Virus record (IMG/VR): IMGVR_UViG_2698536485_000016
Coordinates: 1 to 22,503 of that record
Reading direction: 5' to 3' (one strand)
Origin: a virus
Taxonomy: Duplodnaviria > Heunggongvirae > Uroviricota > Caudoviricetes
DNA length: 22,503 bases
This document shows, one piece after another, positions 1,981 to 7,942 of the stretch. How positions within the stretch are numbered: position 1 is the first letter of the stretch; each line of letters begins with the position of its first letter. Both the position numbers and the translations under genes were made by a program. Under the pieces are notes generated by a model. It saw only the letters and a program-made list of their open reading frames with translations, was not told where the DNA came from and made no database searches.

Positions 1981-2444
1981 GCAGAGTAACCGCGATTATC
2001 TCCGCTCTGGTTATCTGCATCATCGTTTGCCTGTCGTGGGCGGTCAATCATTACCGTGATAACGCCATGACCTACAAAGAACAGCGCGATAAAAAAGTCA
2101 GTGAGCTGATGCAGGCTACTACCACCATTACTGACATGCAGCAGCGCCAGCGTACTGCTGATGCACTTGATGCTAAATACACGAAGGAGTTAGCTGATGC
2201 GAAAGCTGAAAATGATGCTCTTCGGCGCAAGCTTGATAATGGTGGTCGGGTGCTCGTCAAAGGAAAATGCCCTGTGCCATCCTCAGCCGAAACCTCCAGC
2301 GCCTCCGGCATGGGCAATGATGCCACCGTCGAACTCTCTCCAGTTGCTGGACGAAACGTTCTCGGTGTCCGGGACGGAATTATCCGCGACCAAACAGTAC
2401 TGAGAACGCTTCAGGAATACATCAGGACGCAATGCCTTCGATGA
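1977..2444 (+). CDS. Rz: Rz inner-membrane spanin (i-spanin)
   Basis: Start overlaps the R stop (ATGA); N-terminal transmembrane segment followed by a coiled-coil-like periplasmic domain; position after the endolysin. Confidence 0.9.
2197..2403 (+). CDS. Rz1: Rz1 outer-membrane lipoprotein spanin (o-spanin), nested in the +1 frame of Rz
   Basis: 68-aa ORF wholly inside Rz; signal peptide with lipobox (LIMVVGC) followed by a proline-rich mature region ([11 protein letters not shown]); classical embedded Rz/Rz1 architecture. Confidence 0.75.
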
Positions 2445-2615
2445 TAGCGATAATTTTACTCATCATCCTTCACATCTGGCTCTGTAGACAGGGTGATGAT
2501 CACTTCTGGAGTGAATCCAGATTAAACATCTCATTGCTGATGCTTGATATTGAGCATCTGGCGCGCGGTAAGGGGCTGCGTTGAGATAAGAGCCAGTCAT
2601 TACAAATACCAGGAT

Positions 2616-2645
2616 TTAGCCTCGCATTCGCGGGGCTTTTTATAT
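2616..2645 (+). terminator. Candidate intrinsic terminator downstream of the lysis cassette
   Basis: GC-rich hairpin agcctcgc-attc-gcggggct (2618-2637) followed by TTTTTATAT. Confidence 0.5.
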
Positions 2646-2785
2646 CTGAATTTCACAGCGCATCTCACGCGCATATTAACGAGAGCCTTTCAGTAAGCGA
2701 GCCTGAGAAATTCCGTTATAGGTGGCGACCTCTCTCGGGCGGCTTTTCTGTGAGACAGGCTCACTTTCTAAAAGGTAAAGACGCT

Positions 2786-3304
2786 ATGAATCATCAATTG
2801 GCTAATCTCGATTTCCGGGACATGGTGGTTGTTTCTGGTGATCGCGTGATCACAACCTCCCGCAAGGTAGCAGCTTACTTCGACAAGCAGCATCACCACA
2901 TCATTCAGAAAATCGAAAAGCTAGACTGTTCGGATGAATTTCTAACCAGCAACTTTTCGCGGGTTACCTATGAACACAAGGGTAATCAGTATGTTGAATA
3001 TGAAATTTCCAAAGACGGCGCGATGTACATCATCATGTCGTTTACCGGCAAAAAAGCTGCCGCCATCAAAGAGGCGTTTATCAAAGCATTTAATTGGATG
3101 CGTGACAGGCTGATGGAGATGGCTCACTCATACCAAAGAGAGCACAACGAGTTAATGCTGGAGTTCATGAAGGAAAAGGATGTTGCCAGTATGTCAGGAC
3201 GCTTGCTGAACCGCTGGGGCAGGATCAAAAAACCGCAACTCATAGCAAGAATCGAAAGGCTTGAGCAGCAGGCGCAAATATCGATCCCCGGACTGCCAAA
3301 GTGA
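2786..3304 (+). CDS. Rha-family phage regulatory protein
   Basis: N-terminal segment VVVSGDRVITTSRKVAAYFDKQHHHIIQKIEKL and later MSFTGKKAAAIKEAFIKAFNWM fit the Rha domain pattern as I know it. ATG at 2786 preferred over the GTG at 2750 used by the ORF track. Confidence 0.75.
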   Translation: MNHQLANLDFRDMVVVSGDRVITTSRKVAAYFDKQHHHIIQKIEKLDCSDEFLTSNFSRVTYEHKGNQYVEYEISKDGAMYIIMSFTGKKAAAIKEAFIKAFNWMRDRLMEMAHSYQREHNELMLEFMKEKDVASMSGRLLNRWGRIKKPQLIARIERLEQQAQISIPGLPK

Positions 3305-3656
3305 CCATTCCAAAGCTCATCTACGGGTGGGCTTGATAATGAAACCGTGATTTACATCCCCACAATCCGGGTATGTAAAAGATAGTTCAGGCGAGAACAG
3401 ATTTAACTAAATCTGTGCACCACCAGTTGCGGCAGTACAGCGAAACAACCCAAGCCAGAAAGTGGGGAAATAACACTGGCAGCCACTGAAAGATGAACCT
3501 CCAGCCTTAAGGCAAAAAAGATTCTTTGTGGTGGCGGACTGATGGAAAGACATCGGTTATTGCAGAGGCCATTCAATGAGTGGTCTCGACAATGGCTTAT
3601 ACCCTACACGGGATAACTTAATTGATATCCCTTTTAACGGATAAACGGAGCCAACA

Positions 3657-3899
3657 ATGGCAGAGATTATTCCCATGACTGAAGAACAGAAATTCCAGTT
3701 AGAGATTTACAAACTGGTCATGAACCAGAACGCAGCCGCAGAAGAAGCATTTCAATTCATCGGCACTGACGAGTTGAAGCTTGAGCTATTCAAAATTCAC
3801 TTCCAGTCAGGTGGCGCTAATTCAGATATCACGACCAGAACTATCGAAGCGGTGCGTAAATCGAAGGAAGCGTTAGACCTGTTCACTACCGGAGCATAA
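3657..3899 (+). CDS. Hypothetical small acidic protein (80 aa)
   Basis: ORF with SD GGAG 9 nt upstream (acggagccaacaATG); no family recognised; sits just upstream of the small terminase gene. Confidence 0.5.
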   Translation: MAEIIPMTEEQKFQLEIYKLVMNQNAAAEEAFQFIGTDELKLELFKIHFQSGGANSDITTRTIEAVRKSKEALDLFTTGA

Positions 3900-3978
3900 A
3901 CATGGCAACTCAAGGTTTCGACAACCCATCCAAATTCCGCGATGAATGGGATAAGCAAGCAGAAGGGAAATAATCAAT

Positions 3979-4404
3979 ATGGCGACTGAGAAAAAGAATG
4001 TCGGTCGCCCTTCGGATTACCTACCGGAGGTGGCTGATGATATCTGTGCGCTGCTTTCCTCCGGGGAAAGTCTGGTTAAGGTTTGCAAGCGCCCCGGCAT
4101 GCCAGCAAAGGCTACTGTATTTCGCTGGCTGTCAGAGCATGAAGAATTTAGAGACAAGTACGCGAAGGCAACTGAGGCACGAGCTGATTCTATTTTCGAA
4201 GAGATATTCGAAATTGCTGACACTGCGATTCCAGATGCTGCTGAGGTGGCAAAGGCAAGACTTCGCGTTGATACCCGCAAATGGGCGCTGGCCCGAATGA
4301 ATCCCCGTAAGTATGGCGACAAGGTAACTAACGAGCTTGTCGGCAAAGACGGCGGCGCAATCCAGATTGAAACATCACCGATGAGCACTCTATTCGGAAA
4401 ATGA
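3979..4404 (+). CDS. Terminase small subunit (Sf6 gp1-like)
   Basis: 141-aa ORF immediately upstream of, and overlapping (ATGA), the large terminase; N-terminal DNA-binding-like region; matches my recollection of Sf6-type small terminase. Confidence 0.85.
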   Translation: MATEKKNVGRPSDYLPEVADDICALLSSGESLVKVCKRPGMPAKATVFRWLSEHEEFRDKYAKATEARADSIFEEIFEIADTAIPDAAEVAKARLRVDTRKWALARMNPRKYGDKVTNELVGKDGGAIQIETSPMSTLFGK

Positions 4405-5813
4405 CCTCGATTAATCCTATCTTTGAACCGTTCATTGAGGCGCATCGCTACAAAGTCGCCAAAGGCGGTCGAGGTAGCGGTAAGTCATGGGCAATTGCGA
4501 GACTGCTTGTTGAAGCGGCGCGTCGGCAGCCTGTGCGCATACTCTGCGCTCGTGAACTGCAAAACAGTATCAGCGATTCTGTAATCCGGTTGCTTGAAGA
4601 CACCATCGAGCGTGAAGGATATTCGGCTGAGTTTGAAATTCAGCGTTCAATGATTCGTCATCTCGGAACGAATGCTGAATTCATGTTCTACGGAATAAAA
4701 AACAACCCGACGAAGATTAAATCGCTCGAAGGTATTGATATCTGCTGGGTGGAAGAAGCGGAGGCGGTAACGAAGGAATCATGGGATATCCTGATACCAA
4801 CCATCCGTAAGCCGTTCTCTGAAATATGGGTGAGCTTTAACCCGAAGAACATCCTCGACGATACCTATCAGCGATTCGTCGTAAATCCTCCTGATGATAT
4901 TTGTCTGCTGACGGTGAACTACACCGACAACCCGCACTTTCCTGAAGTTCTCCGTCTGGAGATGGAAGAGTGTAAACGCAGAAACCCGACACTGTATCGT
5001 CACATCTGGCTTGGTGAGCCAGTAAGCGCAAGTGATATGGCAATCATCAAACGTGAATGGCTTGAAGCCGCAACCGATGCGCACAAGAAACTCGGATGGA
5101 AAGCGAAAGGCGCTGTTGTCTCTGCGCATGACCCGTCAGATACAGGGCCGGATGCTAAAGGTTATGCATCGCGTCACGGTTCGGTTGTTAAGCGCATTGC
5201 CGAAGGCCTGCTGATGGACATCAACGAGGGTGCTGACTGGGCTACTTCGCTGGCGATTGAAGACGGCGCTGACCATTACCTGTGGGACGGTGATGGCGTC
5301 GGTGCGGGCCTACGCAGACAGACAACGGAAGCGTTCTCCGGCAAGAAAATCACCGCCACGATGTTCAAGGGAAGTGAATCGCCATTCGATGAAGATGCGC
5401 CGTATCAGGCCGGAGCATGGGCTGATGAAGTCGTACAGGGTGACAACGTTCGCACTATTGGTGATGTGTTCCGCAATAAGCGAGCGCAATTCTATTACGC
5501 GCTGGCTGACAGGCTGTATCTGACATATCGGGCGGTTGTCCACGGTGAGTATGCAGACCCCGACGACATGCTGAGTTTCGACAAAGAAGCGATAGGCGAG
5601 AAGATGCTGGAGAAGCTGTTTGCAGAACTGACGCAGATTCAGCGCAAATTCAATAACAACGGGAAGCTGGAGCTAATGACTAAGGTCGAAATGAAGCAGA
5701 AGCTCGGTATTCCATCTCCTAACCTGGCTGATGCGCTGATGATGTGTATGCATTGCCCGGCATTGGTCCGCGAAGAAACAGAAATATACGTTCCCTCATC
5801 CTCCGGTTGGTAA
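4401..5813 (+). CDS. Terminase large subunit (ATPase/nuclease), PBSX / Sf6 gp2 type
   Basis: 470-aa ORF; Walker A GGRGSGKS near the N-terminus; acidic nuclease-domain residues C-terminally; canonical position. Confidence 0.95.
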   Translation: MTSINPIFEPFIEAHRYKVAKGGRGSGKSWAIARLLVEAARRQPVRILCARELQNSISDSVIRLLEDTIEREGYSAEFEIQRSMIRHLGTNAEFMFYGIKNNPTKIKSLEGIDICWVEEAEAVTKESWDILIPTIRKPFSEIWVSFNPKNILDDTYQRFVVNPPDDICLLTVNYTDNPHFPEVLRLEMEECKRRNPTLYRHIWLGEPVSASDMAIIKREWLEAATDAHKKLGWKAKGAVVSAHDPSDTGPDAKGYASRHGSVVKRIAEGLLMDINEGADWATSLAIEDGADHYLWDGDGVGAGLRRQTTEAFSGKKITATMFKGSESPFDEDAPYQAGAWADEVVQGDNVRTIGDVFRNKRAQFYYALADRLYLTYRAVVHGEYADPDDMLSFDKEAIGEKMLEKLFAELTQIQRKFNNNGKLELMTKVEMKQKLGIPSPNLADALMMCMHCPALVREETEIYVPSSSGW

Positions 5814-5815
5814 AC

Positions 5816-7942
5816 ATGGCAGAGACATTAGAGAAAAAACATGAGCGGATCATGCTCAGGTTTGACCGCGCCTATTCTCCACAGAAGGAAGTGCGCGAAA
5901 AGTGCATTGAAGCTACGAGGTTTGCTCGTGTCCCCGGAGGTCAATGGGAAGGAGCAACGGCGGCTGGAACTAAGCTTGATGAGCAGTTCGAGAAGTATCC
6001 TAAGTTTGAAATCAATAAGGTAGCAACTGAACTTAACCGCATCATTGCAGAATACCGCAATAACAGAATAACCGTTAAGTTTCGTCCTGGTGACAGAGAG
6101 GCAAGCGAAGAGTTAGCCAATAAATTAAATGGTCTGTTCCGTGCTGACTACGAAGAAACTGATGGCGGTGAGGCTTGCGATAATGCATTTGACGACGCTG
6201 CTACTGGTGGTTTCGGTTGCTTCCGTTTGACGTCGATGCTGGTCAATGAATACGACCCCATGGACGATCGTCAGCGTATTGCTATTGAACCAATATACGA
6301 CCCGTCGCGCTCTGTGTGGTTTGACCCTGACGCTAAGAAGTACGACAAATCTGACGCGTTGTGGGCGTTCTGTATGTATTCGTTGTCACCTGAAAAATAT
6401 GAGGCTGAATACGGAAAGAAACCTCCTACTTCTCTGGATGTAACGTCTATGACCAGTTGGGAATATAACTGGTTTGGTGCAGATGTTATTTACATAGCGA
6501 AGTATTACGAAGTTCGTAAAGAGTCTGTTGACGTCATCAGTTATCGACATCCAATCACTGGAGAGATTGCAACATACGACAGTGATCAGGTTGAAGATAT
6601 TGAAGATGAACTGGCAATAGCTGGATTTCAGGAAGTGGCAAGGCGCTCAGTGAAGCGCCGTCGTGTGTATGTATCCGTAGTGGATGGTGATGGTTTCCTT
6701 GAGAAACCTCGACGTATTCCTGGTGAGCATATCCCCCTCATCCCGGTTTATGGAAAACGCTGGTTCATTGATGACATTGAGCGTGTCGAAGGGCACATTG
6801 CAAAAGCAATGGATCCACAGCGTTTGTACAACCTTCAGGTTTCAATGCTGGCTGATACTGCAGCGCAAGACCCCGGTCAGATCCCTATAGTTGGCATGGA
6901 GCAAATTCGTGGACTTGAGAAGCACTGGGAGGCTCGCAACAAGAAACGCCCAGCGTTCTTGCCGTTGCGCGAAGTGAGAGATAAATCTGGCAACATTATC
7001 GCTGGAGCTACCCCGGCAGGATATACACAGCCTGCGGTTATGAATCAGGCATTGGCTGCATTACTACAGCAAACCAGTGCTGATATTCAGGAGGTTACAG
7101 GCGGCAGTCAGGCCATGCAGCAGATGCCAAGTAATATTGCTCAGGAAACGGTTAACAACTTGATGAACAGAGCAGATATGGCTTCGTTTATCTATCTGGA
7201 TAATATGGCGAAAAGTCTTAAACGCGCTGGTGAAGTATGGCTGTCAATGGCGCGTGAAGTGTACGGTTCAGAACGTGAAGTGCGCATCGTTAACGAAGAT
7301 GGAAGTGATGATATCGCTGTCCTGAGCGCACAGGTTGTTGACAGGCAAACAGGGGCTGTTGTTGCGTTAAATGACCTTTCTGTCGGTCGATACGATGTGA
7401 CGGTTGATGTTGGACCAAGCTACACAGCACGACGTGATGCAACGGTTTCTGTACTGACAAATGTCCTTAGCTCTATGCTTCCAACAGACCCAATGCGCCC
7501 GGCAATTCAGGGTATTATTCTGGACAATATCGATGGCGAAGGCCTTGATGACTTCAAAGAGTACAACCGAAACCAACTGCTGATATCTGGTATTGCAAAA
7601 CCACGCAATGAGAAAGAGCAGCAGATTGTTCAACAGGCGCAAATGGCAGCACAAAGCCAGCCAAATCCTGAAATGGTTCTCGCTCAGGCGCAAATGGTAG
7701 CAGCGCAGGCAGAAGCGCAAAAAGCAACTAACGAAACTGCTCAAACTCAAATCAAAGCATTTACTGCCCAGCAGGATGCGATGGAGAGTCAGGCAAACAC
7801 TGTCTATAAACTGGCTCAAGCCAGAAACATCGATGACAAAGCAGTGATGGAGGCAATACGCCTTCTGAAAGATGTCGCCGAGTCACAACAACAGCAATTC
7901 CAGTCACCACCACAGTCACCGGCAGACTTAATGCCGAGTTAA
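5816..7942 (+). CDS. Portal protein (P22 gp1 / Sf6 gp3-like)
   Basis: Large ORF directly after the terminase. I chose the ATG at 5816 (708 aa, start MAETLEKK, 2 nt after the terminase stop) rather than the extended 732-aa ORF-track start at 5744, which overlaps the terminase. Gln/Ala-rich C-terminal barrel-like tail. Confidence 0.88.
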   Translation: MAETLEKKHERIMLRFDRAYSPQKEVREKCIEATRFARVPGGQWEGATAAGTKLDEQFEKYPKFEINKVATELNRIIAEYRNNRITVKFRPGDREASEELANKLNGLFRADYEETDGGEACDNAFDDAATGGFGCFRLTSMLVNEYDPMDDRQRIAIEPIYDPSRSVWFDPDAKKYDKSDALWAFCMYSLSPEKYEAEYGKKPPTSLDVTSMTSWEYNWFGADVIYIAKYYEVRKESVDVISYRHPITGEIATYDSDQVEDIEDELAIAGFQEVARRSVKRRRVYVSVVDGDGFLEKPRRIPGEHIPLIPVYGKRWFIDDIERVEGHIAKAMDPQRLYNLQVSMLADTAAQDPGQIPIVGMEQIRGLEKHWEARNKKRPAFLPLREVRDKSGNIIAGATPAGYTQPAVMNQALAALLQQTSADIQEVTGGSQAMQQMPSNIAQETVNNLMNRADMASFIYLDNMAKSLKRAGEVWLSMAREVYGSEREVRIVNEDGSDDIAVLSAQVVDRQTGAVVALNDLSVGRYDVTVDVGPSYTARRDATVSVLTNVLSSMLPTDPMRPAIQGIILDNIDGEGLDDFKEYNRNQLLISGIAKPRNEKEQQIVQQAQMAAQSQPNPEMVLAQAQMVAAQAEAQKATNETAQTQIKAFTAQQDAMESQANTVYKLAQARNIDDKAVMEAIRLLKDVAESQQQQFQSPPQSPADLMPS

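Follow-up and report, generated by a model that had tools for sequence, protein, structure and literature searches.

A 23-codon open reading frame (ORF) immediately upstream of the small terminase gene of a P22-like phage is, judged from the substitutions among its homologues, very probably a real protein-coding gene. The ORF lies in a stretch of tailed-phage DNA of 22,503 nucleotides (nt) from IMG/VR (record IMGVR_UViG_2698536485_000016, positions 1 to 22,503), hereafter the window, which is late-region DNA from a P22-like prophage or phage of Lederbergvirus type. This micro-ORF occupies positions 3902..3973 of the + strand, where 23 codons plus a stop specify the product MATQGFDNPSKFRDEWDKQAEGK. 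Its upstream neighbor is an 80-amino-acid (80-aa) gene of family DUF2560 (3657..3899, + strand), and its downstream neighbor is terS, the gene for the small terminase subunit (3979..4404, + strand). The micro-ORF family, found among lambdoid and P22-like phages of Enterobacterales, was previously undescribed and is almost never annotated. The explanation we consider best overall, and likely to be right, is that the window holds two separate late-operon accessory genes, the DUF2560 gene and a genuine micro-gene acting in trans. The micro-gene is new and belongs to a known class of phage small proteins; the DUF2560 part is ordinary.

A preliminary description of the window had given the coordinates, the peptide sequence, a GGAG motif 7 nt upstream and a 5-nt gap to the terS ATG, all of which were exact. 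The ATG at 3902 lies 2 nt past the DUF2560 stop codon, and the TAA at 3971-3973 ends 5 nt before the terS ATG at 3979. The GGAG, at 3891..3894 on the + strand, is a Shine-Dalgarno (SD) motif placed within the final DUF2560 codons. On its own, an SD-preceded ORF of 23 codons is unremarkable, as 128 ORFs of 20 aa or longer fall wholly or partly within the first 8 kb of the window. The micro-ORF stands above chance because it is conserved in frame, length, start and SD across 256 loci. As expected of its family, it sits in the late operon between the antiterminator and lysis genes and the terminase genes, is co-oriented with them and has its own SD.

The 256 loci that we fetched come from phages of Escherichia, Salmonella, Enterobacter, Cronobacter, Proteus, Providencia and Morganella, and almost none is annotated. 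They encode 56 distinct peptides, including 26 of 23 aa, one of 24 aa, 28 of 27-30 aa and one of 47 aa, with the window peptide being the commonest variant (85 of 256 loci). Translation would start at ATG in 247 loci and GTG in nine, and an SD-like motif is present 4-12 nt 5' of the start in 92 of 102 distinct upstream contexts. We compared the conserved core of the peptide (QGFDNPSKFRDEWDK, codons 4-18, 3911..3955 on the + strand) among 63 distinct 15-codon DNA sequences. The pooled proportions of synonymous (pS) and nonsynonymous (pN) differences were 0.675 and 0.133 in the micro-ORF frame, for a pN/pS ratio of 0.20, versus 1.48 and 1.58 in the other two frames. A set of 18 sequences gave 0.25 in frame and 1.3 and 1.7 off-frame, with third-codon positions varying at 15 of 15 codons. 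The conserved Arg is present in 62 of the 63 sequences and is encoded by all six of its codons; the Pro is invariant and uses four codons, as does the Gly (62 of 63). Frame +2 is interrupted by stops in 62 of 63 sequences, and the few substitutions found in the ORF among E. coli copies that are otherwise identical are synonymous. Since the synonymous excess occurs only in the micro-ORF frame, these sequences indicate that selection acts on the peptide and not on DNA or RNA.

Family members share the motif [QE]-G-[FS]-D-[NK]-P-x-[KQ]-F-R-[ED]-E-[WL]-D-K, after which come 4-9 hydrophilic residues and the stop codon, and the window peptide fits this motif. Residues G5, F6, P9, F12, R13, E15, W/L16 and D17 are invariant or nearly so, and the tail past K18 varies. 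The preliminary description had allowed that the micro-ORF could encode a real peptide, a suggestion strongly supported by purifying selection and by the conserved length, start and SD across genera. It had also proposed looking for both reading frames in relatives, and both are conserved there: the DUF2560 region matches 185 phage records, and the micro-ORF is kept at the 256 loci.

With megablast, the matches of most relatives ended at the DUF2560 stop codon, and the next 80 bp were common to only three phages (APC_JM3.2, E212 and EC.P3), where they precede a TerS of the P22 gp3 type. A sensitive blastn search and one with tblastn recovered divergent copies in Salmonella phages Emek and MS2 LVA, Escherichia phages HK544 and Ivi, Cronobacter phage ES2, Proteus phages Pm34 and Brookers, and phages of Enterobacter and Providencia. 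The tblastn matches fell in 15 phage records, nearly all of which lack an annotation of the ORF or annotate the wrong frame. Loci found by either program carry intact ORFs, 23-27 codons long, that keep this frame and have an SD-like motif 5' of the start (e.g., MAAQGFDNPTQFREELDKSIPKE, MSAEGFNNPSKFRDEWDSSVKSK and MKSCNATQGFDNPTKFREEWDRQTKEA), in addition to versions of 46-47 aa in Proteus and Providencia, including one of 47 residues in Providencia. We discarded one tblastn match, MT836952, which is the helix-turn-helix at the C-terminus of an AraC-type regulator. Among 5.8e9 proteins, a profile search yielded 49 clusters of 23-70 residues sharing the same core, among them a 29-residue E. coli variant on 445 contigs.

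At the DNA level, 231 of 5426 complete E. coli genomes (~4%) carry the window's version, 213 of them at ≥ 80% coverage. Three scans of IMG/VR under different patterns gave 408, 258 and 282 confirmed copies, and Atlantibacter, Enterobacter and Morganella were added by a scan of GTDB species. When 1.84e9 representatives were searched exhaustively with HMMER, there were 35 matches, all short, and the longer ones were either upstream run-ons with the same C-terminus or a fusion with DUF2560 through a 1-nt insertion. With short matches only, the family is therefore narrow and devoid of domain-containing relatives. The fusion, P0050 (105 aa, on three contigs), joins DUF2560 and the micro-ORF in frame (…TTGA-IN-MATQGF…). 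It fits a 1-nt insertion in the region of the TAA stop codon, which may be a sequencing error or a rare read-through variant.

Lambdoid and P22-like phages are among the best annotated viruses, yet a conserved gene present in about 1 in 25 complete E. coli genomes, and in hundreds of Enterobacterales prophages, has been overlooked. In the three E. coli records that we inspected, the Prokaryotic Genome Annotation Pipeline (PGAP) annotated DUF2560 and the terminase but not the micro-ORF. The micro-gene is absent from the inspected RefSeq/PGAP records and from most GenBank phage records, and at least two records cover it with the wrong frame. Specifically, Pm34 gp6 (1461-1607) and Emek orf53 (1390-1551) are longer annotated coding sequences lying over the micro-ORF in a different frame, and both annotations are probably wrong. 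In our literature search, the peptide sequence was not found in any paper.

Clustering of neighboring genes placed the micro-ORF at three main positions. In the first, it lies between DUF2560 and terS (84 loci), with gaps of 2 nt on its 5' side and 5 nt on its 3' side. The same cassette stands before an Sf6-type TerS in 54-55 loci and before a P22 gp3-type TerS in 30-31 loci. In the second position (about 110 loci), it directly follows the spanin genes, of LysC type or Rz. There, it overlaps the stop codon of the LysC-type o-spanin by 1-4 nt in Enterobacter-type prophages, and begins 25 nt past Rz, just behind a terminator hairpin, in the Proteus/Providencia type. The third position is upstream of DUF2560 (19 loci, e.g., Emek); in HK544 the same module is instead upstream of a gp74-like gene, and in ES2 the micro-ORF lies between Q and holin. 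Downstream neighbors vary accordingly among two TerS families, DUF2560, Rha-like genes (at +157 to +182 in some loci), a 69-aa ORF without an assigned role, or nothing near. In about 100 or more of the 256 loci, many of them spanin-adjacent, the next ORF is 100-390 nt downstream. The gene is thus mobile between positions in the late region.

In the window, the micro-ORF and a TCAAT spacer form a 77-bp cassette (3902..3978, + strand) that fills the slot from the DUF2560 stop to the terS ATG and is bounded by ATGGC at 3902-3906 and 3979-3983. In CUS-3, the terS ATG stands in place of the window's micro-ORF ATG (GGAGCATAAAC|ATGGC), and the GGAG there serves terS. The gene would thus have come as a 77-bp cassette placed exactly between the DUF2560 stop and the terS start, using the GGAG that in CUS-3 serves terS directly. 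An identical TAATCAAT|ATGGC junction leads into both the Sf6 gp1-type (141 aa) and the P22 gp3-type (162 aa) TerS, which are unrelated, so that the point of mosaic recombination coincides exactly with the start codon of terS. The cassette marks this joint precisely, which makes it useful for studying how mosaic phage genomes exchange modules.

Other phages fill this slot with other genes, namely P22 orf59c, Sf6 gp68/HK620 hkbN and epsilon34 gp70-71. The micro-ORF occupies the same variable late slot of small accessory genes, bounded by conserved junctions, but it has no sequence similarity to these genes or to pid and is much shorter, at 23 aa rather than 59-134 aa. P22 pid is a small accessory gene near this slot (PMC3573128). 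Unlike pid, which is its own oppositely oriented transcription unit, the micro-ORF is co-oriented with its neighbors and translationally abutted to them.

The peptide is hydrophilic (grand average of hydropathy -1.65), near neutral to slightly acidic, and has no membrane segment. AlphaFold2, applied to a 33-aa member of the family (P0018) with a 28-sequence alignment, predicted a disordered N-terminus and a single helix over the residues equivalent to PSKFRDEWDKQAE (codons 9-21, 3926..3964 on the + strand), with a predicted local distance difference test (pLDDT) score of about 86 for the helix block. This predicted helix is amphipathic. Plotted on a helical wheel, F12, W16 and A20 line up as a narrow hydrophobic stripe bordered by i/i+4 salt-bridge pairs. 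Searching the PDB with the micro-peptide profile gave only chance matches of nine residues, and NCBIfam gave none.

From these properties, we propose that the micro-peptide would be made late, from a Q-antiterminated transcript, as a soluble molecule with a floppy N-terminus and one amphipathic helix. It would act in trans by docking this helix onto a phage or host protein partner. We regard such a trans-acting, protein-binding mechanism as an even call. In the window, terminating ribosomes would probably also be passed to the terS ATG 5 nt downstream as a side effect. Very small phage peptides of known action include T4 Stp, a 26-aa inhibitor of the restriction enzyme EcoprrI, and lambda CIII, a 54-aa inhibitor of FtsH with an amphipathic helix. 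The micro-peptide resembles both in size class, in being soluble, and in its putative short helix binding a larger protein. In contrast to the micro-peptide of the late operon, Stp and CIII are products of early genes with known targets, and neither has sequence similarity to it.

Genomic position offers two weak leads to a role. In most genera, the micro-gene closes the lysis cassette as its last cistron, and in E. coli it opens the packaging module as the first, pointing to lysis and packaging, respectively. We also considered a role in counter-defense. A dedicated trans-acting late-phase effector could modulate lysis timing or packaging from the cytoplasm, or be a decoy that dampens host abortive-infection sensors responding to late proteins, and we put this proposal forward tentatively, as less probable than not. 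If true, the micro-gene would be the shortest conserved functional gene described in lambdoid/P22-like phages. The case is tractable in that a 23-residue peptide can be synthesized and cultured carriers exist (APC_JM3.2, E212, HK544 and Emek). The family thereby provides a good means of studying the late-infection roles of very small phage proteins.

Several points weigh against reading the micro-ORF as a trans-acting gene. Homologues were gathered by peptide pattern, which misses decayed copies and biases the 100% intactness upward. The pN/pS values were pooled over pairs of sequences with no correction for phylogeny. The supplements of two surveys, the Enterobacteriaceae microproteome study and the Sakai ribosome profiling (Ribo-seq) study, do not contain the peptide. 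Across the family, we found no domain fusion, functional annotation or partner. AlphaFold2 models of so short a peptide carry moderate confidence overall (mean pLDDT 68.6), and binding to a protein partner is argued from the size and solubility of the peptide and the geometry of its helix. That the peptide is translated in vivo, made late and active in trans is likewise what we infer rather than what we observed.

The 80-aa gene (ATG 3657, TAA 3897-3899) had been characterized as acidic and without a recognizable family, and as possibly encoding an anti-defense protein. It does belong to a family: the ORF is a full-length match to Pfam DUF2560 (PF10834) spanning positions 1-72 of the 72-position profile, at 147.7 bits (E 1.1e-43) against a gathering threshold of 25 bits, and it also matches PHROG 571 (E 2.3e-41). 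Relatives include P22 Orf80, HK620 HkbM and Sf6 gp67, from which the window protein does not differ as an ordinary member. DNA of the region matches the 185 phage records at 89-98% identity, and the gene is named hkbM, gene 67 or Orf80 there. Its slot, between lysis/Rha and the small terminase on the same strand, is alike in HK620, CUS-3, epsilon34, Sf6, P22 and APC_JM3.2. The family is narrow, occurring in Escherichia, Salmonella, Shimwellia, Serratia and Proteus at ≥ 59% identity to the window protein. A prophage with P22 orf25-orf80 deleted still gives viable phage (PMC11016777), and orf80 of P22 is dispensable for both lytic growth and lysogeny. By sequence, then, the 80-aa gene is an ordinary member of a known family whose function is not assigned.

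Could the 80-aa protein be a DNA mimic or otherwise act against host defenses? It is small, nonessential and acidic, and other phages carry accessory genes in the DUF2560 slot, some of which are automatically labelled anti-CRISPR, as in phage Huey. However, the acidity is mild (isoelectric point 4.72, net charge about -5), and the classic DNA mimics Ocr and ArdA are far more acidic. Structure prediction, which had been suggested as a check for DNA-mimic features, gave four helices (residues 9-22, 26-35, 39-54 and 58-78; AlphaFold2 with 21 sequences, mean pLDDT 77.5) with no specific match above noise to any solved protein in the PDB or to BFVD, where the matches were uncharacterized proteins only. 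Neither the extreme charge nor the known fold of Ocr/ArdA-type mimics is therefore found in the 80-aa protein. PADLOC returned no match for either ORF, and NCBIfam returned none for the 80-aa protein. Furthermore, the gene belongs to the late operon, whereas early expression is typical of anti-restriction functions, and DUF2560 is kept beside terS whatever the host. We therefore consider a mimic or anti-defense function of the 80-aa protein unlikely. In Escherichia phage Huey, two genes between the lysis genes and DUF2560 carry the automatic label 'anti-CRISPR protein', which is unconfirmed. One of them matches Sf6 gene 66 in its coordinates relative to DUF2560, and the two genes hint at an accessory or counter-defense hot spot in the region.

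The micro-ORF had alternatively been suggested to be a translational-coupling device, in which case it would be only a spacer between DUF2560 and terS and its peptide would be irrelevant. The geometry fits, with the ORF beginning 2 nt after the DUF2560 stop and ending 5 nt before the terS ATG, and the same 5-nt junction recurs in 85 loci. Because the GGAG serves the micro-ORF, terS is left with a weak and distant SD-like AAGGG (3963-3967, 11 nt upstream, inside the micro-ORF) and a hairpin at its AUG, which makes hand-over of ribosomes from the micro-ORF to terS plausible as a secondary effect. This RNA hairpin (3981-4009, GGCGACUGA...UCGGUCGCC) starts with the G in the AUG of terS and has an outer stem (3971-3975/4015-4019) that takes in the micro-ORF stop codon; the hairpin could hinder independent initiation at terS.

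Against a purely coupling role, a peptide of no consequence should be free to vary, but the micro-peptide is under purifying selection (pN/pS 0.20). In addition, sequence and length are kept in about 100 or more loci with no ORF within 100 nt downstream, and CUS-3 couples terS directly to DUF2560 without a micro-ORF. The micro-ORF thus shares its 5-nt and 2-nt spacing with coupled upstream ORFs of phage late operons but differs from them in having a selected peptide and, often, no close downstream ORF. With the next ORF 100-390 nt away in many spanin-adjacent loci, coupling is not the reason that the gene is kept. The suggestion of a coupling device therefore survives at most in secondary form, for the window and loci like it, and we judge coupling alone to be very unlikely. 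As for a programmed frameshift between the micro-ORF and terS, we rejected this candidate: no in-register X XXY YYZ heptamer is present (zero frame GAA GGG AAA TAA), and the terS frame is open for only eight codons upstream (TAA 3952-3954).

A short conserved peptide beside an essential gene could also be a leader that acts in cis, controlling the downstream gene through ribosome arrest or attenuation. Such arrest peptides, exemplified by TnaC and SecM, combine small size with conservation of the amino-acid sequence, and in the window the micro-ORF does adjoin an essential gene. We hold this possibility to be as improbable as coupling alone, given that the downstream neighbor is not constant and that the peptide varies most at its C-terminal residues, beside the stop codon, unlike known arrest motifs. 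Moreover, the fold of 3880-4020 is no more stable than shuffled sequences (z = -0.63), Rfam has no match at E up to 1, and attenuation would have to contend with the Q-modified RNA polymerase, which ignores terminators.

Slightly less probable still is that the micro-ORF is what is left of a longer gene in decay, such as a truncated DUF2740-like protein. The window peptide gives a weak match to Pfam DUF2740 (PF10872; 13.4 bits, E 0.064), and 15 of 25 family members give the same mid-profile match (13-15 bits, best E 0.004). These scores fall short of the 27-bit gathering threshold for membership, and the alignment of the core GFDNPxKFRxEWDK spans positions 19-32 of the 43-position profile, or a third of its length. 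The match may reflect distant kinship. Although the versions of 46-47 aa in Proteus and Providencia would suit a remnant, 54 of the 56 variants have 23-30 aa across at least seven genera, and no longer domain-containing relative appeared among the 1.84e9 representatives searched with HMMER. We found no mention of DUF2740 in the literature. YdaG of the E. coli K-12 Rac prophage (44 aa) was considered as a DUF2740 member and rejected, as it matches the UBA-like family PF14555 instead (24.2 bits versus a threshold of 21.8).

Finally, that the ORF is incidental to a conserved DNA or RNA element (a packaging site, small RNA or recombination boundary) has some appeal at a mosaic joint beside terS with identical copies before two TerS types, but it is the least probable alternative and is already largely refuted by the codon-position pattern, since third-codon positions vary throughout the core while amino acids are kept, off-frame pN/pS exceeds 1, frame +2 carries stops in 62 of 63 sequences, no Rfam match or stable fold is present, and the ORF is far from terS in many phages.

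Genes of the surrounding region are ordered as lysis genes, Rha, the 80-aa ORF, the micro-ORF, an Sf6-type TerS, TerL, portal, and head and tail genes. The window opens with the C-terminal part of a Q-type antiterminator (ending at 528), followed by holin (1197-1520), lysozyme (1504-1980) and Rz with an embedded Rz1 (1977-2444). A terminator-like hairpin follows the lysis cassette on the + strand (2618..2637, AGCCTCGC-ATTC-GCGGGGCT plus a T run) and is the sole terminator-like site in 2300-4500. Next are a Rha/ORF11CD3 regulator (2750-3304), DUF2560, the micro-ORF, the small terminase subunit of Sf6 gp1 type (Pfam PF20901, E 1.7e-44; PHROG 1482) and the large terminase (4401-5813). Because no promoter-like site was found on the + strand between the post-lysis terminator and terS, both the DUF2560 gene and the micro-ORF would be read from the Q-antiterminated, Q-dependent late transcript. 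It is established lambda biology that terminators are ignored by Q-modified RNA polymerase.

The post-lysis hairpin (AGCCTCGC...GCGGGGCTTTTT) is conserved from E. coli to phages of Proteus, Providencia and Morganella. In the latter three, a hairpin of this type is directly 5' of the micro-ORF homologue, whose SD immediately follows the T tract. Between rha and DUF2560, about 350 bp (3305-3656) contain no convincing + strand ORF and are kept in many P22-like phages. This stretch is the slot equivalent to that of the oppositely oriented pid moron of P22, and it includes minus-strand ORFs of 48-57 aa within 3403-3576. It also includes a hairpin with a 7-bp stem (3565-3587, GAGGCCA...TGGTCTC), and the equivalent hairpin of HK544 and Emek has the micro-ORF homologue inserted just 5' of it.

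Two further observations concern the annotation of the window. A 50-aa ORF (2432-2584) with a hydrophobic N-terminus overlaps the Rz stop codon and has no Pfam or PADLOC match. It is placed like Sf6 gene 65 and epsilon34 gp67, to which its position suggests homology. The listed portal ORF (5744-7942) starts at a GTG within the 3' end of terL, and its true start is likely the ATG at 5816 (MAETLEKK...), 3 nt past the terL stop codon.

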